DNA from: Patescibacteria group bacterium
Lineage (GTDB): Bacteria; Patescibacteriota; Minisyncoccia; Minisyncoccales; UBA10102
Length of the DNA: 64,000 nucleotides
Direction of reading: 5' to 3'
Assembly: GCA_024239055.1 (NCBI GenBank)
Contig: JANBVJ010000001.1
Coordinates: 368,572 to 432,571 of the forward strand
Below, in pieces: positions 29,636 through 62,374 of this stretch. How positions within the stretch are numbered: position 1 is the stretch's first letter; each line of letters starts with the position of its first letter. A program made the translations under genes and the position numbers. The notes under the pieces are model-generated. The model saw nothing but the letters and a program-made list of their open reading frames with translations. It was not told where the DNA came from and did not search any database.

Positions 29636-30397
29636 TTAAAGCCATCTCTTCAACCACTTTGAAGTTATAGAAATAACTTCTCTTTGAATACCTTGCTTGC
29701 CAGTAAAATCATGTGTAAGATTTTGCAATATCTTTATTTCCGCTTTTCCTTTTGTAAGTCTTTTTGCCAACTCCCCTTCTGATATTGGAACCGTGTCGTC
29801 AGCCTTCCCATATAAAAGACCAAAAGGAATTCTTAACTTGGAAAGCGCCTTTTCTGAATTATACTTAAAAGTATCTTTTATAAACGGATTGTATTTAACC
29901 TCATACCCCGCCCAAGCTTCAATGTACCCCTTGCGTTTTGCCTCCTCAACCCATATCTTGGACACAAAATCTTTATAATCTGAGATCCTTCCCATCCATG
30001 AGATAAGAGCCTTCACTCTTTTGTCTTTTGCTGCATGCAAAAGAGCTATGTATGCGCCCTGACTATGTCCTATTAGAGCAACACGATTTCTATCTATTCC
30101 CTCTTTCTTAACTGTCTGATTGATAACTACATTCAGATCACTAAGCATTGAAGAAGTAGTCTGCTTTTCAAAAATCCCATCAGAATCTCCGCTTCCACGA
30201 AAATCAAAGCGCAAAACGGCAAACCCTTCTTTTACTAAACCCTTTGCAGCTTGATTAAAAAAGGAATTCCACGTGCCTAAGTGATTTCCAGTCCAGCCAT
30301 GACAAAATACCACGAGAGGCACCTCCTTTTTAGCTTTTGGCATATCTAAAATGCCAAAAATGTCTTGTCTCTTGTTTTTAAATATGACTGGCTTCAT
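29636..30397 (-). CDS. Alpha/beta-fold hydrolase
   Basis: GHSQGA nucleophile elbow and a C-terminal LTHDF His motif. Confidence 0.75.
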   Translation of the reverse strand: MKPVIFKNKRQDIFGILDMPKAKKEVPLVVFCHGWTGNHLGTWNSFFNQAAKGLVKEGFAVLRFDFRGSGDSDGIFEKQTTSSMLSDLNVVINQTVKKEGIDRNRVALIGHSQGAYIALLHAAKDKRVKALISWMGRISDYKDFVSKIWVEEAKRKGYIEAWAGYEVKYNPFIKDTFKYNSEKALSKLRIPFGLLYGKADDTVPISEGELAKRLTKGKAEIKILQNLTHDFTGKQGIQREVISITSKWLKRWL

Positions 30398-30480
30398 ATC
30401 AATAGTCTATCAAAAAATCGCCTTCTTGGCGACTTTGGGTCCCCGCTCATATATTTTACGACTTTGAGTCTGGCTTCATA
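30395..30480 (-). repeat. Copy A of a ~86-bp direct repeat containing a terminator-like hairpin plus U6
   Basis: It aligns to 30885-30970 at an offset of exactly 490 nt. Positions 30408-30437 vs 30898-30927 are identical, followed by 11 mismatches over the remaining 43 nt. The hairpin AAAGTCGCC-AAGAA-GGCGATTTT then TT lies on the minus strand. Confidence 0.8.
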
Positions 30481-30887
30481 TAATCTCTCATTTGTTTGAC
30501 CATTTCTTTAACTTCAGATAAAACCTTCTCATTTGCCATATTTTCCTTCGCGTAGTTAATGATAGGTCTTATTGATTCAATTTTTTCACCAAATTTGTTC
30601 ATCCACTCATATCGAGGAAAAATCCATAAGTGAAATAAATGATGTGTTCCTTCATCTTGGAAAAAGCATACGGTTTCAATTCTTAAAACTTCTCGCATAC
30701 CTCTTCTTAATTTTCTAACCAAACTGAAAAACTCATCTGCCTCTTCATTATTAAATTCATCCAAAGAAACCTTTCCTGTTTTTGAGGCGATAATAAAAAA
30801 ACCAGGAATAGAAACATCCCAATCTTGATGCACATCAAAATATTTTGTGATAATTATTTTTTCATTTGGAAAAAGTTGCTTCGCCAT
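30456..30887 (-). CDS. HIT-like domain protein (143 aa)
   Basis: A ..GTHHLFHLWIFPR.. histidine-rich motif in the position of a HIT triad; weak family call. Confidence 0.5.
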   Translation of the reverse strand: MAKQLFPNEKIIITKYFDVHQDWDVSIPGFFIIASKTGKVSLDEFNNEEADEFFSLVRKLRRGMREVLRIETVCFFQDEGTHHLFHLWIFPRYEWMNKFGEKIESIRPIINYAKENMANEKVLSEVKEMVKQMRDYMKPDSKS

Positions 30888-30970
30888 ATTCTTATCTTAT
30901 CAAAAAATCGCCTTCTTGGCGACTTTGAGTCCTCAATCATATATTTTATAACTCTAAATCCAGCTTCATA
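30885..30970 (-). repeat. Copy B of the ~86-bp direct repeat
   Basis: See copy A. Copy B carries a degenerate relic (ATGAAGCTGGATTTAGAGTTATAA) of the last 8 codons of the HIT-like gene (ATGAAGCCAGACTCAAAGTCGTAA). Confidence 0.8.
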
Positions 30971-31017: not shown

Positions 31018-31104
31018 GCCTGGGTGGCGGAACTGGCAGACGCGTAGCACTCAAAATGCTATGAGAGCAATCTCGTGTGGGTTCGACTCCCACCCCAGGC
31101 ACCA
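31018..31104 (+). tRNA. tRNA-Leu(CAA), type II with long variable arm, CCA encoded
   Basis: Acceptor GCCTGGG/CCCAGGC, anticodon stem-loop TAGCA-CTCAAAA-TGCTA, variable arm TGAGAGCAATCTCGT, T arm GTGGG-TTCGACT-CCCAC, and a 3' ACCA. Confidence 0.9.
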
Positions 31105-33289: not shown

Positions 33290-34486
33290 TTATTTTATTC
33301 TCATTGTAGGACTATTCTGCAAGAACATAAAGCAGAGAACAGCTATAGCGGCAACAAAGAATATGACGCCAAGCGGAAAGCTAGGAACAACAAGAAATAG
33401 GACTCCAAGTAATGCAAAGAATATAAACTTTGCCCCTCCATTAATCACCTCTCTGTAGACGATAAACTCATCAGCCTGTTCCTTTAAGCTCCCTGCTTTT
33501 TCATAAAAGAAGGTAAAGAATGGAATACCTACCGCAGCCCTCGAGGTCTTGTAGACTGTCTGGGCCAAGAAGGCATCAAATGGCGTCTGCACAAAGTACT
33601 TCATCACCCATGCAATAGATGTCCAGATAGCCCCAATATTTAACAGCCACGAGCGATCCTTGGTATCAGAAAGCTTCCCAATATAGAGAATGAAGAGAGC
33701 TGAAATCAACAGGGAAAAAGAGGTAATCCCTCCAATCTGAGAGAAGGTAATGGCTGCCATAAACATAAAGAGAGGCCATATCGTAAGGTTTATCGCTATC
33801 TCCAAGGCTACCGAAGAAAAGGCTAAACTTGCGCGCCAGCGTTCCCTTGAGAATATCTTTCCAAAGACCTTTCTATAGGAATCTGTATACATCTCGTGGG
33901 TTTCCTTCGTATACATAAGCGGAATAGCAGAAGCCAATAGTGTTATAAGTACAGCCACAAACAATGCAGGATATCCAAGGGTTGTTATAATCCAACCCCC
34001 GATAAAAGGACTGGCTACCATAGGAAGCAAGGCCGCCACATTCACCTTCCCTACTTCTTTTCCACGATGAGAAGTAGAGGAGAACCTTACAAAGTCAATA
34101 TGGAAAGAAGGCCAGTACAAAGCCATTCCTGCAGCCCCCGCTACAACTGCCAATGGAACAAAGAAGAAAGACTGGGAAAAGAGAAAAAGGGAGATATAAA
34201 ATATAAAGTACAGAAAGTAGCTGACTAAAATGCTGCGCGTTGGCCCTATCTTTGATATAACCTTAGCCCCCATCACCACAAACAATCCGTACAACAGATA
34301 GAGAGCCGCAAAGAAAAAGAAGACAGGAGCTATGGTTTGGTTAAAGAATAAAAAGATATAGACCGCCTCAAAAACTAAGACCATTCCCATTGCCAGATTG
34401 CGAATGGCAACTGCAATAAAGAACTTATCTACGTCCCGTTTTACAAAATAGTCAAAGTAGTGAACAAATGTATTGGGGGCTATCAT
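33290..34486 (-). CDS. MFS-type transporter
   Basis: About 12 TM helices in 398 aa; call by architecture only. Confidence 0.5.
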   Translation of the reverse strand: MIAPNTFVHYFDYFVKRDVDKFFIAVAIRNLAMGMVLVFEAVYIFLFFNQTIAPVFFFFAALYLLYGLFVVMGAKVISKIGPTRSILVSYFLYFIFYISLFLFSQSFFFVPLAVVAGAAGMALYWPSFHIDFVRFSSTSHRGKEVGKVNVAALLPMVASPFIGGWIITTLGYPALFVAVLITLLASAIPLMYTKETHEMYTDSYRKVFGKIFSRERWRASLAFSSVALEIAINLTIWPLFMFMAAITFSQIGGITSFSLLISALFILYIGKLSDTKDRSWLLNIGAIWTSIAWVMKYFVQTPFDAFLAQTVYKTSRAAVGIPFFTFFYEKAGSLKEQADEFIVYREVINGGAKFIFFALLGVLFLVVPSFPLGVIFFVAAIAVLCFMFLQNSPTMRIK

Positions 34487-35076
34487 TGTATCTTCCCAGA
34501 TCCCTTCCTAATAATTGCTGCTTGATGTATAAAATCTACCACAGAAGAGGGGGGAGAGGAAGTAAGATCTCCTGCGTCATACACAACATCCGGAGTATAT
34601 TTGCGACCTGCAAACTCCGCAATAACTTTCTGCCCACTCAGTATGGGCGGGTTTCCCGAGAGGTTAGCTGAGGTTCCAATCAAAGGAATATCAATCTTCT
34701 TTAATATCTCCTGTAAAAAAGGATACCCTGGTATGCGCATACCTATCTTTTCTGTGGTTCCTGTAACATCTGGCAATACTCCTCTGCTTCTTACAATAAC
34801 CGTTACCTTGCCAGGCCAATATTTTTTCATAAATGACTCTTGAGAAGAATCTACAACTCCAAATTCCTTTGCCATCTCAATATCTCTTACAAAAATAGGG
34901 AATGCCTTTCCTGGCTCCCGTCCCTTTATAGTAAATATCCTCTCAACCGCCTCTTTATTTGTCGCATCAGCAACTAACCCATACACAGTGTCTGTGGGAC
35001 AGATAATTACCTTTCCCTGCTGTAAGGCAACAACTACTGAATCCACATTCGTTTCTTTAATCTTCCAAGTATCCAT
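34483..35076 (-). CDS. tsaC: L-threonylcarbamoyladenylate synthase (YrdC/TsaC)
   Basis: ICPTDTVYGLVADATN and ..IKGREPGKAFPIFV.. motifs. I trimmed the start to MDTWKIKE (35076); TATAAT lies 6 nt upstream. Confidence 0.85.
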   Translation of the reverse strand: MDTWKIKETNVDSVVVALQQGKVIICPTDTVYGLVADATNKEAVERIFTIKGREPGKAFPIFVRDIEMAKEFGVVDSSQESFMKKYWPGKVTVIVRSRGVLPDVTGTTEKIGMRIPGYPFLQEILKKIDIPLIGTSANLSGNPPILSGQKVIAEFAGRKYTPDVVYDAGDLTSSPPSSVVDFIHQAAIIRKGSGKIQ

Positions 35077-35101
35077 GTTCCTATTATATGTGCTTTTGGA
35101 G

Positions 35102-35358
35102 AAAAAAAAAGACCTTTTAAGGGAAGACCTTTGAGGAGGGTGATCTGTTATATCCGAGGGAAAGTCGCCGCGAGAAACTCTCCCATAACAGACCACCCTC
35201 CATCGGAAGGGATGAACCTAGACTCTGAACTTCTGCCTCGCGTTGGCACGCCGCGTGCCTGCGAGTACCAAAGTCTAAGACATCCTAGAAGAATAGCAAG
35301 AAAAGGAGGAGGAAGGGATGCTAAAACCCAAAAGCCTTTCCTGCTACTCAAAAGATCT
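35102..35358 (-). ncRNA. Candidate structured RNA of ~255 nt, class unknown, with its own promoter and 3' U9 run
   Basis: The promoter TTGACC-16-(TGg)TATAAA lies at 35392..35365. Hand-folding gives a 17-bp helix (35201-35185 with 35151-35135), a ~76-nt compound hairpin (35285-35210) and 5'/3' closing pairing. Three helices contain G-U pairs that would be A-C mismatches on the plus strand. A U9 run sits at 35110..35102. The region looks GC-richer than its flanks by eye. Confidence 0.6.
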
Positions 35359-35364
35359 ACATCC

Positions 35365-35392
35365 TTTATACCATATCACTCTACCTGGTCAA
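35365..35392 (-). promoter_or_regulatory. Promoter of the candidate ncRNA, TTGACC-16-TGgTATAAA
   Basis: The -35 is at 35392..35387 (overlapping the 3' end of the upstream CDS) and the -10 at 35370..35365, with a TGG extension. Confidence 0.55.
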
Positions 35393-36052
35393 GAAGTTCT
35401 CAGCGGCATCAAGAGACTCTGGAGTCGCAATAGGAAACCATTTTTCTGCAACAGAATAGAAAAGAGAAGAGTTTTGTAAAACTTGTTTCACATAATCTGT
35501 AAACTCATATTCCCCACGCACGGACTTTTGAATTGATACCTTGAGGATAGAGCTGGGAAGATGATAGGCTCCCGTATTCACCAATTTGCTCGTAGGATTC
35601 TCTGGTTTTTCAAGTAATTCTATAACTCTGTTCCCATTTGTTGTAATAACACCAAAGTTCTCTGGATGTTCTGACTCTGCCACCATAATGGCAGGAAAAA
35701 TCTTCAAAAGAGCTGCGATATCATCTTTATGGTACAAATCATCTCCATTTAAAAAGAGACAGGATTCATCAAGAAAAGGAGCGGCCTGAAGAGCTGCGTC
35801 ACCCGTTCCTTTTTGCGTACTCTGCCATACATATTTAATCTTAATATCGCCATATGAGTCACCAAGCTTAGACTCAATCATCTCACCCTTATACCCAACA
35901 ACAAGAATAACCTCGTTCACCAAACCTGCAAGTTGAGATAGATTATGCTCTAAAATAGATGTATCCCCTACAGATAAAAGGGATTTTGGTGTTGAATTCG
36001 TAAGGGGACGCATACGTATTCCCTTTCCTGCAGCAAAAATAACAGCCTGCAT
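35381..36052 (-). CDS. Sugar-phosphate nucleotidyltransferase (GlmU N-terminal/RmlA-like)
   Basis: MQAVIFAAGKGIRMRPLT.. signature. Confidence 0.8.
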   Translation of the reverse strand: MQAVIFAAGKGIRMRPLTNSTPKSLLSVGDTSILEHNLSQLAGLVNEVILVVGYKGEMIESKLGDSYGDIKIKYVWQSTQKGTGDAALQAAPFLDESCLFLNGDDLYHKDDIAALLKIFPAIMVAESEHPENFGVITTNGNRVIELLEKPENPTSKLVNTGAYHLPSSILKVSIQKSVRGEYEFTDYVKQVLQNSSLFYSVAEKWFPIATPESLDAAENFLTR

Positions 36053-37009: not shown

Positions 37010-38836
37010 CTATTCAACCGTTACTGATTTTGCAAGATTACGTGGCTTATCCACGTCATACCCGCGCTTAACTCCAATCTCGTATGCGAACAGCTGTAAA
37101 GGAAGTACGGAAAGAATTGGAGTAAGCATCTCTATGGTCTTTGGAATATAAATAACGTCATCAGCCAGATTTGCTATCTCTTTATCTCCCACAGAAGCTA
37201 TAGCGATAATAGAACCTCCTCGTGCTTTTATCTCCTGAATATTAGAAATCATTTTTTCATACACACTGTCACTAGGACAGATAGCTAAAGTGGGAAAGTT
37301 CTCGTCTATTAAGGCAATGGAGCCGTGTTTCATCTCCCCCGCCCCATATCCCTCAGCATGCACATAGGAAATCTCTTTTAACTTTAAGGCTCCCTCCAAG
37401 GCTATAGGATAGTTATACTTTCTGCCAATATAAAGCATATTTGAAAAGCTAGCGTATTTCTGCGCCAATTGTGCAATTACTTCTTTCTGCCCCAACACCT
37501 GCTTAACCAAATCTGGAAGACGAGCTATCTCCTCCACAATGCGTTTTCCCAACACCAGAGACATACTTCTTTGTCTTGCCAAAAAGACCGTAAGCATAGC
37601 TAGGGCAACGAGTTGGGAAGTAAAAGCCTTTGTTGAGGCAACTCCAATTTCAGGACCGGCATGATTGTAAATACCCGCCGTAATCTCACGCGCAACAGAA
37701 GATCCCACTGTATTGACAATACCAAGAGTCAGACCACCCTTTCGCTTAACTTCTCGTAACGCCGCCAATGTATCTGCAGTTTCGCCGGATTGCGAAATAA
37801 AGAGAAAGGCGGTATCTGGACTCACGATTGGCTTTCTATATCGAAACTCAGAAGCAATATCAACCTCACATGAAAGACCAGCATACTCCTCAATCATGTA
37901 TTTTCCTGTCATTGCAGAAAAGAACGCAGTTCCGCACGCAATAATGTGAATGCGCTTCATGCCCCGCAACTTCTCTTCCACTTCTTCTAATCCTCCAAGC
38001 TTTACCGCTCCTTCTTTTGGTAGAAGGCGTCCGCGAATAACATTTCGTATGCTTTCTGGCTGCTCTAAAATCTCCTTTAACATAAAGGTCTCATGTCCTC
38101 CTTTCTGTGCCTCCTCTGCACTCCATTCAAGTTCTGTAATTTCTTTTTCTTTTTTAATATTATGAAGATCGGTAACCGTAAAAGTACCTGATTCTAAAAC
38201 CGCAACCTCTCCATCATCCAAAAACACCATTTTGTTTGAATGAGAAACAATGGCAGACGGGTCAGAAGCAACAAATCCTCCAGAGTCATTTACCGATATA
38301 ACAAGAGGGGAGGATACTCGGGCAGCAACAATCTTTCCAGGATCATCCCTAGCCACCACGGCCATACCATAACTCCCCTTTACCAATAAAAGTGCCTGGC
38401 GCACGGCCTTTGGCAAGTCACCCTTAAAAAAATGCTCAATTAGGTGGGGAAGGACTTCTGTATCGGTTTCTGAGTGAAATACATGTCCCTTCTCCTCTAA
38501 CTGTCTCTTAAGAGACATAAAGTTCTCAATAATGCCATTGTGTACTACAAAGATATTATTATTACAGTCAGCGTGAGGATGCGCGTTAGCTTCTGTAACC
38601 TCTCCATGCGTTGCCCATCTTGAATGTCCTAATCCTACTGTTCCCTTAAAGTCAGACTTCTGAACTTTTTCCTCTAAAACCTCTAGTTTTCCCACTGCCC
38701 TAACAAGTTCTGGTTTTTCTTTTTCAAACACAATAATGCCACTTGAGTCATATCCTCGATAGCTTTGTTTTCTCAGACCATCTAAAATCAGAGGTGTCGC
38801 TGACTTATTCCCAATATATCCAATAATTCCACACAT
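37010..38836 (-). CDS. glmS: Glutamine--fructose-6-phosphate aminotransferase
   Basis: I trimmed the start to MCGIIGYIG (catalytic Cys2). Two SIS domains; C-terminal ..AKSVTVE. Confidence 0.95.
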   Translation of the reverse strand: MCGIIGYIGNKSATPLILDGLRKQSYRGYDSSGIIVFEKEKPELVRAVGKLEVLEEKVQKSDFKGTVGLGHSRWATHGEVTEANAHPHADCNNNIFVVHNGIIENFMSLKRQLEEKGHVFHSETDTEVLPHLIEHFFKGDLPKAVRQALLLVKGSYGMAVVARDDPGKIVAARVSSPLVISVNDSGGFVASDPSAIVSHSNKMVFLDDGEVAVLESGTFTVTDLHNIKKEKEITELEWSAEEAQKGGHETFMLKEILEQPESIRNVIRGRLLPKEGAVKLGGLEEVEEKLRGMKRIHIIACGTAFFSAMTGKYMIEEYAGLSCEVDIASEFRYRKPIVSPDTAFLFISQSGETADTLAALREVKRKGGLTLGIVNTVGSSVAREITAGIYNHAGPEIGVASTKAFTSQLVALAMLTVFLARQRSMSLVLGKRIVEEIARLPDLVKQVLGQKEVIAQLAQKYASFSNMLYIGRKYNYPIALEGALKLKEISYVHAEGYGAGEMKHGSIALIDENFPTLAICPSDSVYEKMISNIQEIKARGGSIIAIASVGDKEIANLADDVIYIPKTIEMLTPILSVLPLQLFAYEIGVKRGYDVDKPRNLAKSVTVE

Positions 38837-38844
38837 AGAAACAA

Positions 38845-41262
38845 TTAAACTACAATATTCACCAATCGTCCTTGAACAACAACAACCCGCTTGGGTTTTT
38901 TTCCACCCACCCATTTTTTAATCTTTTCTGAATCTAATGCTAACTGCTTTGCTTCAGATTCCGTAATATCTGGGGAAACCTCAACTACATCTCTAACCTT
39001 TCCATTGACTTGAAGCACTAGCCGACTTTGAACATCCTTTACAAGGAAAGAATCATATTCTGGCCATTTTTGATTATGTATGCTTCCTTGATTCTTTAGT
39101 CTTCCCCATAACTCCTCTCCAATATAAGGGGCAAAGGGAGAAAGGAGTATAAGTAAAGTATTAAGATCTTTTTTTAGAACGGAATCCTTAGCTGAGATTG
39201 CATTTAAGTATTCCATAAGAGCTGCAATCGCAGTATTATATCTCAAATTCTCAAGGTCTAAGGTAACCTTTTTAATAGTCTTGTGTCTAATCTGCTCAAG
39301 CTCATCATTTTTTGTCTTTGGCTTTTTAGAAAAGGTTTCTGCATATTCCCATAGCCGATTGAGGAATCTTCTTATTCCAACAATCCCCTGGTCTGACCAA
39401 TCTCCGGCTTCTGATAAGGGACCCAAAAACATAAGATACATTCTCACTGTATCAGCTCCATATTTATCAAAGTATTCATCGGGGTTTACTACGTTTCCAC
39501 GGGACTTTGACATTTTTGCTCCGCCTTTTGTCAATAGACCATGAGCACGGAATTTCTTAAAGGGTTCTTCAAAATCAATGTAGCCAAGTTTATGAAGCAC
39601 CATGGTGGTAAACCGAGAATAGAGAAGATGTAAGACCGCGTGCTCTTGTCCGCCAATATACATATCTACGGGAAGCCATTTTTTAGTCAATCTCCTGTCA
39701 AAAGGTTTCTTTACATCCCCAGAAGAAGGATACCTGAGAAAGTACCAGGCAGAGTCCAAAAAAGTATCAGATACATCTGTCTCACGCTCAGCTTCCCTTT
39801 TGCATTTAGGGCACTTAGTTTTTACAAATGAAGGAACAGAAGCCAAAGGAGAAACTCCTTTTCCTCTGGGTCTAAAATCTTTCACATACGGAAGCTTAAC
39901 AGGTAAATCTTTTTCGGGTACCGGTACTGTTCCGCACTCTTTGCAATAAATAATTGGGATAGGAGGACCCCAGTATCGCTGGCGAGAGATTAGCCAGTCG
40001 CGGAGATGGTACTGCACTACCTTTTTGGCATGCTTTAATTCAATACTATGCTCTGCCACCGCATTACGTGCCTTATTATCTGACATCCCTGCAAACTTAC
40101 CAGTGGCCTCGGTCATGACTCCAGGACCTATATATGCTTCCTTGAGCTTGTCTACTGTAAGATTATTGCCTTTAGGCCGCACAACAAGAATAATAGGGAG
40201 CTTATACTGCTTGGCAAACTCAAAATCTCTTTGGTCATGCGCTGGGGCGCCTTTTATTATCCCGGTTCCGTAACCCATAACCACAAAGTTCGCAATGTAA
40301 ATAGGTATCTCTTCTCCAGTAAGAAAATTCATTGCGTTCCATCCTACGAAGAACCCTTTCTTTTTCCTCTCAATGGAAGCAGTATCCTTGAGCTTCTCTC
40401 TTCGAACCCCCTCAATAAACTTTCTCGCACCCTCCTCAACCTTTGTCCCTTTTATGAGCTTTTCAATAATCGGGTGTTCAGGAGCAATGGCAAGAAAGGT
40501 GGCTCCGTACGTAGTATGAGGCCATGTGGTAAAGGTTTCCAAGGTGAGGTTAAGACCTCCAACCTTCCATTTCTCAATCAGTCCTTCTGACTTTCCAATC
40601 CAATTTCTCTGAGCTATCTTTGTTCTTTCTGACCAGTCAATCCACTCAAGGTTTTTCAAAAGCTTGTCTGCATACTTGGTAATTCCAAAGAACCACTGCT
40701 CCATTTCTTTTTGTATAACCTCAGTATCACACCGCTCACATTTCCCATTAATCACCTGCTCATTAGCCAAAACAGTCTTACACGAAGGACACCAATCAAC
40801 AGGAGCCTTTGCTCGATATGCCAATCCTGCCTTATACAACTGCAAGAACAACCACTGAGTCCATTTGTAATATGAAGGGTGGGTAGTATCTACTTCATTC
40901 TCCCACGCAAATATGGCGCCCATGCGTTTTAACTGCCTCCTAAAGTTATTGACGTTACGCTTTATTAAAATACTAGGATGAATTCCCTGCTTAATAGCAA
41001 AGTTTTCAGAATGAATCCCAAAAGCATCAAAGCCCATGGGTTCAAAAACATCATATCCCTGCATCCTTTTGAATCTTCCGTGTATATCAGATCCAGTAAA
41101 CGCATAGACGTTTCCTACGTGTAGCCCTTCGGCAGAAGGATATGGAAACATCATCAAGTTGTAATACGGTTTTTTGGGTTTAGAAAGATTAACCTTCCAT
41201 ATTTTCTCTTTTTCCCAAAGCTTTTGTATCTTTTTCTCAACCTTCTGAGGATTGTATTGCAT
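38845..41262 (-). CDS. leuS: Leucyl-tRNA synthetase
   Basis: MQYNPQKVEKKIQKLW start (the ATG at 41262 is preferred over the track's TTG at 41268), the HIGH-region GLHVGN and KMSKSRGN. Confidence 0.95.
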   Translation of the reverse strand: MQYNPQKVEKKIQKLWEKEKIWKVNLSKPKKPYYNLMMFPYPSAEGLHVGNVYAFTGSDIHGRFKRMQGYDVFEPMGFDAFGIHSENFAIKQGIHPSILIKRNVNNFRRQLKRMGAIFAWENEVDTTHPSYYKWTQWLFLQLYKAGLAYRAKAPVDWCPSCKTVLANEQVINGKCERCDTEVIQKEMEQWFFGITKYADKLLKNLEWIDWSERTKIAQRNWIGKSEGLIEKWKVGGLNLTLETFTTWPHTTYGATFLAIAPEHPIIEKLIKGTKVEEGARKFIEGVRREKLKDTASIERKKKGFFVGWNAMNFLTGEEIPIYIANFVVMGYGTGIIKGAPAHDQRDFEFAKQYKLPIILVVRPKGNNLTVDKLKEAYIGPGVMTEATGKFAGMSDNKARNAVAEHSIELKHAKKVVQYHLRDWLISRQRYWGPPIPIIYCKECGTVPVPEKDLPVKLPYVKDFRPRGKGVSPLASVPSFVKTKCPKCKREAERETDVSDTFLDSAWYFLRYPSSGDVKKPFDRRLTKKWLPVDMYIGGQEHAVLHLLYSRFTTMVLHKLGYIDFEEPFKKFRAHGLLTKGGAKMSKSRGNVVNPDEYFDKYGADTVRMYLMFLGPLSEAGDWSDQGIVGIRRFLNRLWEYAETFSKKPKTKNDELEQIRHKTIKKVTLDLENLRYNTAIAALMEYLNAISAKDSVLKKDLNTLLILLSPFAPYIGEELWGRLKNQGSIHNQKWPEYDSFLVKDVQSRLVLQVNGKVRDVVEVSPDITESEAKQLALDSEKIKKWVGGKKPKRVVVVQGRLVNIVV

Positions 41263-61051: not shown

Positions 61052-61498
61052 ATGGCTACATTTGCTGACAACAGAAAAGCGTGGCATGATTATGAAATAT
61101 TAGAGACCTTCCAGGGAGGTCTTTCTTTAAACGGACAAGAAGTAAAATCTATTCGGGGAGGAAGAATAAATCTAGCGGGTTCCTACGTAGACTTAAAAGA
61201 CCAGGAATTGTTCCTAGTCGGAGCAAATATACCGCCCTATCAGCCTGCAAACGCACCGGCTAACTATAATCCAGAACGCGCAAGAAAACTTCTTCTAACA
61301 GCTAAAGAAATTAGGTATTTAATCGGGAAAGTAAAGGAGCGAGGCTTGACTTTGGTACCCTTAAAGGTGTATAGTATGAAGAGCAAAATCAAGCTTGAGT
61401 TCGGACTCGTAAAATCAAAGAAAAAACAGGATAAAAGAAATATCCTAAAGAAACGCGATGCCGAACGAGAGATGAGGAAAGCTATATTACGGGGGTGA
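61052..61498 (+). CDS. smpB: SsrA-binding protein
   Basis: NRKAWHDYEILETFQGGLSLNGQEVKS and the basic C-terminal tail. TGaTACACT lies 6 nt before the ATG. Confidence 0.95.
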   Translation: MATFADNRKAWHDYEILETFQGGLSLNGQEVKSIRGGRINLAGSYVDLKDQELFLVGANIPPYQPANAPANYNPERARKLLLTAKEIRYLIGKVKERGLTLVPLKVYSMKSKIKLEFGLVKSKKKQDKRNILKKRDAEREMRKAILRG

Positions 61499-61846
61499 CC
61501 GTTTTGACAGAAATGTACTTTAAAAGCTGCAAGTCGAGGGTGTCTAAGACCTCGCAAATCCATTAGACAAGGCTTTAAATGCCAACATATTTGCCCCTCA
61601 AAGGGCACTTGCTTACGCGTAATAACGCTTAAGCCATCCCTCTTTTGAGGCTCCATAGAAAGAGAAGGGTGTCATTATGGAGATAGGCTGAGATGATAAT
61701 TCGGCGTCTTAGTTAAAATCAAACGAATTAAAGATTGAGTACACAAGGTTGCCTTGTTTCCGTACTTAATCTCAAACAAACAAGGATACACTTGTAGAAG
61801 CTTTTAAGGAAACCTTCTGGACGGGAATTCATCTTCCCCACCTCCA
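61491..61846 (+). ncRNA. ssrA: tmRNA (ssrA)
   Basis: The 5' GGGGGTG pairs with the 3' CACCTCC, including the G3-U wobble, followed by discriminator A. A T-arm-like GGGAA-TTCATC-TTCCC is present. The tag reading frame is GCC AAC ATA TTT GCC CCT CAA AGG GCA CTT GCT TAC GCG TAA TAA (61581-61625), giving ANIFAPQRALAYA**. CCA is not fully encoded. Confidence 0.85.
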
Positions 61847-61876
61847 CAAAAATAACAAAACAATCTGGCAAATAGA

Positions 61877-62374
61877 ATATACATAAATCAGCAAATAAGG
61901 GCCCATGAGGTCAGACTTGTTGACGAGACAGGAAGCCAGATGGGAATCATTCCAATAGCCGACGCCTTAAAGGCAGCGGAAGAAAAAGGGCTTGATTTAA
62001 TTCAGGTCACAGAAAAAGTAGACCCTCCTGTATGCCGTATAGGCGACTATGGAAAGTACCTCTACCAGCAGGAAAAGAAAGGGAGGGAGGGAAAAAAGCA
62101 GACTGGCGGGGAACTAAAAGAAGTTAGACTCACATATACTATGTCCCCACACGATATGGAAACGCGGGCTAAGAGAGCTGAGAAATTCCTATCAAGGGGC
62201 AGTAAAGTAAGAGTTACCCTTCCGCTTCGTGGACGACAACGGGCCCTGGAGGGATACGCAAGGGAGAAACTAACAACTTTTATTAACTCTCTGAAGGAAA
62301 TTATACCAATTAAGATTGAACGGGAGATTAAACGAGAACCTCGAGGATTATCTATCCTCATTACAAAAGGATAA
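61877..62374 (+). CDS. infC: Translation initiation factor IF-3, probable non-AUG (ATA) start
   Basis: The conserved N-terminus INQQIRAHEVRLVDETGSQ lies upstream of the first ATG (61940), in frame and open back to the stop at 61853. The candidate starts are ATA at 61877 or 61883. Confidence 0.8.
   Translation: MYINQQIRAHEVRLVDETGSQMGIIPIADALKAAEEKGLDLIQVTEKVDPPVCRIGDYGKYLYQQEKKGREGKKQTGGELKEVRLTYTMSPHDMETRAKRAEKFLSRGSKVRVTLPLRGRQRALEGYAREKLTTFINSLKEIIPIKIEREIKREPRGLSILITKG

Follow-up and report, generated by a model that had tools for sequence, protein, structure and literature searches.

Among bacterial RNAs of comparable design, RsaE/RoxS and the other Rsa RNAs of the Firmicutes are terminator-ended small RNAs (sRNAs) that act in trans through C/U-rich unpaired seeds in Hfq-independent bacteria. 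The candidate phyla radiation (CPR; Patescibacteria) has tiny genomes with few protein regulators. To our knowledge, its regulatory RNAs are almost wholly uncharacterised, and a literature search on 6S RNA, sRNAs, RNA motifs or leaderless mRNAs in CPR/Patescibacteria returned nothing relevant. Here, we describe what may be a new structured sRNA of restricted lineage, matching no known RNA family, in the metagenome-assembled genome of an uncultured Patescibacterium whose closest named relatives are Candidatus Wildermuthbacteria. The element lies on the minus strand of a 64,000-nt stretch of contig JANBVJ010000001.1 (positions 368,572 to 432,571; hereafter, the window), within a 305-nt gap between a nucleotidyltransferase gene and tsaC. 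It is probably a real, independently transcribed structured RNA gene of ~257 nt. The reading that we prefer as a whole, that of a lineage-restricted, independently transcribed regulatory sRNA acting in trans via a pyrimidine tract, has in our estimate a probability of roughly 0.4.

The element resembles the RsaE/RoxS-type RNAs in having a predicted promoter of its own, several stem-loops and a terminator-like U-run end, in being lineage-restricted and fast-evolving, and in exposing a C/U motif (CCUCC, UCCC-like) in a loop as its most conserved unpaired sequence. However, it is two to three times longer, contains very long helices and shows no sequence or covariance-model similarity to them. 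The classical G-rich targets at ribosome-binding sites are also largely missing in this host, which is poor in Shine-Dalgarno (SD) sequences, and a target scan of the window yielded no convincing target. With 6S RNA (RF00013) and Ms1, the element shares the properties of an autonomous, strongly promoted, structured RNA of 200–300 nt with poor sequence conservation. In addition, its gene stands beside one-carbon/folate genes (tsaC-MFS-glyA-folD, in which MFS is a major facilitator superfamily transporter), and the Escherichia coli 6S gene, ssrS, adjoins ygfA. It differs from 6S and Ms1 in matching no model, in its tandem hairpins, in its terminator end and in its absence from close syntenic relatives. 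The raiA motif, OLE, ROOL, GOLLD and HEARO RNAs are also >200 nt, multi-helical, intergenic and found in uncultured or under-studied lineages, but none of them matches the window RNA. They carry many conserved unpaired nucleotides and pseudoknots, a sign of elaborate tertiary structure, whereas the window RNA is made of simple hairpins, with conservation mostly in the stems and in one pyrimidine tract. Riboswitches and T-boxes provide a further parallel: a structured domain of ~200–250 nt is followed by a hairpin and U-run just upstream of an amino-acid- or tRNA-metabolism gene, and a closing helix possibly competes with the terminator. The window RNA differs from these in that it matches no model and has no conserved junction core, its closing helix is unsupported, and a separate promoter serves the leaderless gene downstream.

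Relatives of the locus were reached through TsaC and nucleotidyltransferase homologues, and contigs with matching synteny were compared. The original prediction had placed a structured RNA of unknown class in this gap and named shared synteny and covariation as a way to check it. The same slot does hold an alignable element with compensatory changes in two related lineages, L008–L011 (TsaC 74% and nucleotidyltransferase 90% identical; 342-nt gap) and L014/L101 (TsaC 61% and nucleotidyltransferase 86% identical; 237-nt gap). The three lineages have in common a promoter (TTGACY, 16 nt, TATAAA; the −35 boxes read TTGACC, TTGACC and TTGACT), the 5' sequence AUCUYUURAG, two hairpins (A and C), the sequence CUCAAARG of the A-tract, a U-run preceded by a terminator hairpin that is weak in the window, and the tsaC promoter. 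The loop of hairpin A reads CAUCCC..UCUCCUC in all three (CAUCCC..UCCUCCUCC in the window). Among unpaired features, conservation is highest in the 5' segment of the RNA and in the pyrimidine tract that belongs to hairpin A. The RNAalifold consensus of the three sequences contains 55 pairs, nine of which show double-sided changes. Its pairing is realised in 91.5% of the alignment cells, versus 50–60% when the partners are slid by 1–3 columns, an operation that leaves 0–5 double-sided pairs. The earlier argument from G-U pairs that the minus strand is the functional one also held: on the opposite strand, only 83.0% of the cells of the same alignment are paired, and G-U cells outnumber A-C cells by 24 to 10. 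A six-frame comparison found no reading frame conserved across the three lineages, and neither the 67-aa open reading frame (ORF) on the minus strand nor the 100-aa ORF on the plus strand has a Pfam match. On the grounds of fold, pairing, the strand test, and the lack of a conserved frame and of a Pfam match, the element is non-coding, minus-strand and structure-constrained.

The gene order on the minus strand is leuS, glmS, a CofD/YvcK-like gene, the nucleotidyltransferase gene, the gap, tsaC, the MFS transporter gene, glyA and folD, and the G+C content of the element is 0.49 versus 0.40 for the window. When the minus strand was read, all of the motifs and helices listed in the original prediction were found at their positions, including the promoter (TTGACC-16-TGgTATAAA), the U9 run and the TATAAT-N6-ATG arrangement that belongs to tsaC itself (Table 1). 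A generic promoter scan did not call the RNA promoter; a simple scan misses it because its −10 box ends in A. The 5' end of the predicted transcript was set ~7 nt past the −10 box, and its 3' end at the U9 run. At the 3' end, L008 and L014 carry a canonical hairpin plus U-run (−10.6 and −11.0 kcal/mol, respectively). The window has the U9 run and a hairpin of −3.7 kcal/mol (z = 0.15), which the terminator scan did not list. Only ~14 nt separate this terminator from the −10 box of tsaC.

Table 1. Features of the predicted RNA gene and its immediate surroundings (positions in the window)
Feature	Position	Strand	Remarks
Nucleotidyltransferase gene	35381-36052	−	223 aa; stop codon at 35381
−35 box TTGACC	35387..35392	−	Overlaps the final nucleotidyltransferase codons; TTGACC in L008, TTGACT in L014
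Extended −10 box TGgTATAAA	35365..35373	−	16-nt spacer from the −35 box; TATAAA kept in L008 and L014
Predicted transcript	35102..35358	−	~257 nt; both ends predicted
5' single-stranded segment AGAUCUUUUGAG	35347..35358	−	Kept as AUCUYUURAG in three lineages
Hairpin A	35291..35349	−	15-bp stem (35349-35335/35305-35291); 29-nt loop (35334-35306)
Loop sequence			CCUCCUUUUCU
Pyrimidine tract CAUCCCUUCCUCCUCCUUUUCUUGCUAUUCUUCU	35287..35320	−	34 nt; extends from the 3' part of loop A through the 3' strand of its stem into the linker
Hairpin B (compound, 76 nt)	35210..35285	−	GGAUG/CAUCC, CUUAGACUUUGG/UCAGAGUCUAGG, CUCGC/GCGAG, GGCACG-CGG-CGUGCC; −38.1 kcal/mol
Hairpin C	35135..35201	−	17-bp lower stem; 8–9-bp upper stem (GGGAGAGU/ACUUUCCC); 3' internal loop UCGGAU; −41.5 kcal/mol
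A-tract, weak terminator hairpin (AAAGGUCUU/AAGGUCUUU) and U9	35102..35134	−	Consensus helix 6; T9 at 35110-35102
tsaC −10 box and start	35074..35088	−	TATAAT at 35088-35083, 6 nt, ATG at 35076
tsaC gene	34483-35076	−	ATG at 35076

The predicted transcript has a minimum free energy of −112.3 kcal/mol (z = −6.97), and none of 200 dinucleotide shuffles folded as well; the plus-strand read folds with z = −3.14. When folded alone, hairpins A, B and C give z-scores of −3.5, −4.85 and −6.65, respectively. The conserved fold is predicted to be three tandem hairpins followed by a terminator, with no closed junction. Two structures described previously, a 17-bp helix joining 35201-35185 to 35151-35135 (capped by GGGAGAGT/ACTTTCCC) and a ~76-nt compound hairpin at 35285-35210, are recovered as hairpins C and B. 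The closed multi-helix shape in which they had been set did not stand, because its closing helix, formed by 5' AGATCTTTTGAG (35358-35347) and CTCAAAGGTCT (35135-35125), is missing from the RNAalifold consensus. This helix shows no covariation, and of the three substitutions that it carries, two disrupt pairing. In 14 units, taken with approximate boundaries, duplexes formed by the 5' end with the region ahead of the terminator were no better in energy than those of shuffles. The closing helix and the terminator stem are mutually exclusive, because the 3' strand of the former (CUCAAAGGUCU) and the 5' strand of the latter (AAAGGUCUU) share nucleotides. In stem A, 91% of the cells are paired and one pair shows a double-sided change. 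Hairpin B is a variable module, replaced by a longer and different hairpin in L008 and reduced to only ~20 nt in L014. Hairpin C corresponds to consensus helices 3–5, which are 80–100% paired and include six pairs with double-sided changes; in L008 and L014 it contains an extra 13-nt segment in the 5' internal loop (GUCAGACGC) that is deleted in the window.

A covariance model built from the three lineages (R1) scored 292 bits at 35102..35358 and found a single copy in the window. Over 91 sources, it detected the window, L008–L011 and L014, plus a weak match (20 bits) in L017, where the weakly homologous RNA lies between divergent prs and tsaC genes behind TTGACA-16-TATGAT. It gave no match on L099 or L100. 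A three-sequence nhmmer profile searched against 98 loci recovered only the window, L008–L011 and L014, and no sequence homologue of the RNA was present in 80 metagenomic tsaC loci. By sequence and by covariance model, the family is thus limited to the window, L008–L011 and L014/L101, with L017 as a marginal member. A scan of genome contigs with TsaC reached only distant relatives (≤44% identical). A 20-nt degenerate pattern of the RNA occurs in four viral contigs, but none of these matches fits the covariance model, and we therefore regard them as chance. The RNA is missing altogether from three syntenic relatives, in which the gap measures 84 nt (L012 and L100) or 115 nt (L018). The 84-nt spacer (L100 2185-2268, L012 ~286-369) holds two copies of the tandem direct repeat AATCTTCACTAAyGTTCAGATTAT, the second of which extends into the tsaC ATG.

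The sequence becomes unalignable already at 77% identity of the neighbouring nucleotidyltransferase (L099 and L019), where the slot holds an RNA of similar layout. These two RNAs (L019 165-405 and L099 2188-2462) have identical 3' halves, comprising hairpin C, the terminator and the tsaC promoter, and strongly diverged 5' halves, in which a 14-bp G+C-rich helix has been kept through three double-sided compensatory changes. Well-folded promoter-to-terminator units of 160–340 nt, which do not align with the window RNA, were also found in L015, L020, L021, L023, L028, L029, L031 and L042 (TsaC 47–56% identical), and a consensus promoter is present in L017, L020, L021, L028 and L029. Traits common to the slot units are a 5' RUAG motif, a pyrimidine content of 49–63% on the sense strand and a pyrimidine run of 10–34 nt, which is often unpaired and frequently contains CCUCC or CCUUCC. 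In most of the positional analogues, the pyrimidine run is largely unpaired and 13–24 nt long. These RNAs may be homologous or merely analogous. The RNA slot of L015 (~2150-2215) opens with a consensus SD and an ATG followed by a 14-codon ORF (AGGAGGTGAGGGATG..., MKYPMTAAPKPKPK). Such a start is out of the ordinary where SD sequences are so scarce, and the ORF might encode a leader peptide or small protein. A 323-aa protein, P0044 (JGI homologue), combines NTP_transferase and Sua5/YciO/YrdC domains; the genes that flank the RNA slot have here either been fused or been mis-called as one by read-through.

The arrangement of tsaC bears on whether the RNA is a separate unit. The TATAAT box 6 nt before the tsaC ATG has counterparts in most related loci, often as an extended −10 box (TGnTATAAT or TATACT), and L012, L100 and L018 keep the leaderless tsaC promoter without the RNA. 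Most window genes that follow an intergenic gap likewise have a −10-like TAnnnT 6–8 nt before the ATG (e.g. 24374, 26440, 29636-30397 and 38845-41262), and a GGAG/AGGA-like motif was found upstream of only ~10 of 51 crude window ORFs. Because −10 boxes sit 6–8 nt before the ATG and SD motifs are rare, leaderless initiation seems to be the rule, and the genome appears to be almost SD-free, with predominantly leaderless mRNAs. For specialists, this pattern may be no less interesting than the RNA, and it alters how 'anti-SD-like' RNAs in these organisms are to be read. The −10 box of tsaC, the relatives that lack the RNA and the arrangement in L017 together favour an RNA that is a separate unit rather than a tsaC leader, and the tsaC mRNA would be leaderless and transcribed as a unit apart from it.

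On the reading that we prefer, a separate minus-strand RNA gene would be transcribed from its own sigma-70-type promoter and would end at the U-run before the tsaC promoter. The product would consist of three autonomous hairpins, A with a pyrimidine-rich loop, B variable, and C long and G+C-rich, followed by the terminator. The CU tract of hairpin A might pair with other RNAs where these are purine-rich, or might hold a pyrimidine-tract-binding protein, with hairpins B and C serving mainly as a stabilising and exchangeable scaffold, and the RNA as a whole would be a lineage-restricted, fast-evolving regulatory sRNA. We infer discrete transcription, the exact ends, the trans mode of action and the part played by the CU tract from sequence, and the trans-acting CU-tract mechanism that we favour is, taken by itself, less likely than not to be correct. 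The tract is the longest pyrimidine run (34 nt, versus 11 nt for the longest purine run), with a mean unpaired probability of 0.47 and values of 0.5–0.8 at the CCUCC sites. The stretch 35317-35298 within it had been described as single-stranded. This is correct for the 5' half of that stretch, which belongs to the loop (~35334-35306), and wrong for the 3' half, which is paired in stem A; hairpin A had been missed. The resemblance to an anti-SD sequence proposed at the same time loses much of its force in a genome that barely uses SD sequences and is predominantly leaderless. A duplex scan of the window with the CU tract, a search for targets along the lines suggested earlier, returned purine-rich coding stretches only.

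Several observations weigh against this regulatory sRNA. Part of the CU tract is paired in stem A, the near-absence of SD sequences removes the obvious target class for a CCUCC-type seed, and the best complementary site is a purine-rich stretch coding for the infC linker (62056-62105), which is probably a compositional match. Because only three distinct sequences align, the covariation statistics are weak, and the shuffle control is only suggestive, with 28 of 500 shuffles matching the observed number of compensatory pairs. The weak terminator hairpin in the window makes read-through into tsaC possible, and the loss of the RNA in the syntenic L012 and L100 indicates that it is dispensable there. 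The infC gene itself (61940-62374, plus strand) encodes the N- and C-terminal domains of IF3; its annotated ATG is probably a false start. It follows directly on a transfer-messenger RNA (tmRNA) gene (61491-61849, plus strand; 130 bits in Rfam).

Comparison with known RNA families was consistent with the earlier view that the RNA is of no known class. Rfam 15 at gathering thresholds was empty at the locus and yielded only tmRNA and tRNA elsewhere in the window. In E-value mode, the locus (34900-35600, E ≤ 10) and 20 related loci, positional analogues included (E ≤ 5), returned only noise, such as microRNA and snoRNA matches and a 14-bit twister-P1 match on the wrong strand; these E-values were multiplied by 4227 families, which could hide a very weak similarity. 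ARAGORN found no tRNA or tmRNA in 34800-35600. The housekeeping RNAs suggested as analogues in the original prediction (6S, SRP and RNase P) fail on the absence of any model match, on architecture and on a distribution that covers only three lineages by sequence. Fast turnover and loss in syntenic relatives disfavour an essential housekeeping RNA in general. Signal recognition particle (SRP) RNA, whose helix 8 is marked by a GNRA-type tetraloop and conserved symmetric and asymmetric loops, gave no match with either model (RF00169 and RF01854). An SRP-like GUCAG..GGAAGG..AGCAG string in L014 is incidental: its GGAAGG is a covarying stem strand, and GUCAGACGC is deleted in the window. The universal regions of RNase P RNA include conserved region (CR) I, GAGGAAAGUCC, and CR-IV/CR-V, which form helix P4. 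The element matches neither RNase P model (RF00010 and RF00011), is too small and lacks these regions. On the plus strand, GAGGGAAAGUCGCC (35162-35175; resemblance GAGGGAAAGUCG) is one insertion off CR-I. The string is complementary to the hairpin C apex and unconserved in L008 and L014, and we therefore attribute the resemblance to chance. The T-box (RF00230) and riboswitch families were rejected on the lack of a model match and of conserved junction nucleotides, and on the optional nature of one whole hairpin.

The alternative that survives best is a protein-binding or sequestering RNA of the housekeeping type, either a 6S/Ms1 analogue that titrates RNA polymerase or a ligand of ribosomal protein S1, of another pyrimidine-tract-binding protein or of a double-stranded-RNA-binding protein, in a phylum that is not known to have a 6S RNA. 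The strong conserved promoter with its −35 and extended −10 boxes, the large size (210–300 nt) and the long near-perfect helices would suit such an RNA. So would the occurrence of structured promoter-to-terminator RNAs with compensatory changes within sub-families in the slot of many relatives (TsaC 47–58%), and the fact that our literature search found no paper tying 6S RNA to the CPR. We nevertheless consider this unlikely. No 6S match was obtained in any of the Rfam searches above, at the gathering score for the window or at the permissive thresholds for the locus and related loci. The consensus consists of tandem hairpins, with B and C varying freely in length, in place of the 6S rod with its central bubble, and the helix between the 5' and 3' ends is ≤11 bp and unsupported. 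Moreover, the RNA is missing in L012, L100 and L018, and the homology of the analogues is unproven.

Quite unlikely, in our view, is a structured 3' untranslated region (UTR) of the leuS-glmS-cofD-nucleotidyltransferase operon, a module with no function as a free RNA that would stabilise the mRNA and insulate the leaderless tsaC promoter by halting upstream transcription ahead of it. Neither the terminator scan nor reading of the sequence revealed a terminator between the nucleotidyltransferase stop (35381) and the element; operon transcripts must therefore enter it. The variation of hairpins B and C, which remain hairpins throughout, and the need of a downstream leaderless gene for insulation from read-through also fit such a module. 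It does not account for a dedicated promoter (near-consensus −35, extended −10) at the start of the element in the three lineages, nor for a consensus promoter in the five further loci named above, nor for L017, which has no co-directional upstream gene. In addition, an 84-nt spacer suffices in relatives, and in the 5' segment and loop A conservation extends to the sequence, beyond what hairpin formation alone would demand.

The structured domain might also act in cis, as a riboswitch-like or tRNA-sensing leader or attenuator that switches between a stop at the U-run and read-through across the tsaC promoter, and the read-through would either occlude this promoter or yield a leadered tsaC mRNA. 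The link with tsaC survives a change of the upstream gene (L017), the mutually exclusive closing helix and terminator stem offer a conceivable switch, and the window terminator is weak and close to the tsaC −10 box. However, tsaC has its own promoter of the leaderless type, as is the rule in this genome, the read-through extension contains no SD, and the tsaC genes of relatives appear to manage without the element. The closing helix lacks comparative support, and no T-box or riboswitch model matches. The conserved positions fall mostly in stems and the CU tract rather than in junctions, and the optional hairpin and the fast sequence turnover are unlike ligand-binding aptamers. Such a leader is therefore improbable.

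A broader interpretation would see one ancient RNA family upstream of leaderless tsaC across a wide range of Paceibacteria/Parcubacteria-type CPR, with sequence change so rapid that nothing but the architecture survives (promoter, 5' RUAG, hairpins, exposed pyrimidine/CCUCC tract and terminator), as a CPR-specific global regulator. Such an RNA might imitate the 3' tail of 16S rRNA or serve as a decoy for pyrimidine-tract binding, in either case tuning translation initiation in organisms whose initiation is mostly on leaderless mRNAs, or it might be a functional counterpart of 6S in the CPR. We regard this interpretation as very unlikely. Least probable of all is a non-functional spacer that happens to contain many inverted repeats, a gene in decay or a mobile-element relic, for although the narrow distribution, the fast turnover, the loss in relatives and the modest covariation with three sequences would fit it, these compact genomes have kept the gap, promoter and terminator across 61–74% TsaC identity, the fold reaches z = −7 and differs between the strands, and the element is single-copy in the window and in the 91 searched sources, with no protein similarity and no conserved frame.

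Some further features were noted in the surroundings. The glmS gene (MCGIIG..., ATG 38836; 38836-38850, minus strand) begins 8 nt past the leuS stop without an SD, and no glmS ribozyme was found within the 64-kb window. Immediately past the folD/glyA cluster, the opposite strand encodes an 84-nt tRNA (31018-31101, plus strand; Rfam tRNA, 55.7 bits) whose variable arm is long. A module consisting of a terminator hairpin and a promoter (~30398-30440 and 30888-30930, minus strand; GGACyCAAAGTCGCCAAGAAGGCGATTTTTTGATA...) recurs ahead of both of the neighbouring genes at 29636-30397 and 30456-30887, which may reflect a duplicated regulatory cassette or paralogous genes.

If the element were only a lineage-specific sRNA or a 3' UTR element, the finding would be an ordinary one. 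However, a strongly promoted RNA of ~250 nt retained in a compact genome is a concrete regulator candidate, and a slot occupied by analogous pyrimidine-rich RNAs in many relatives provides a handle for comparative and metatranscriptomic work on the Patescibacteria.

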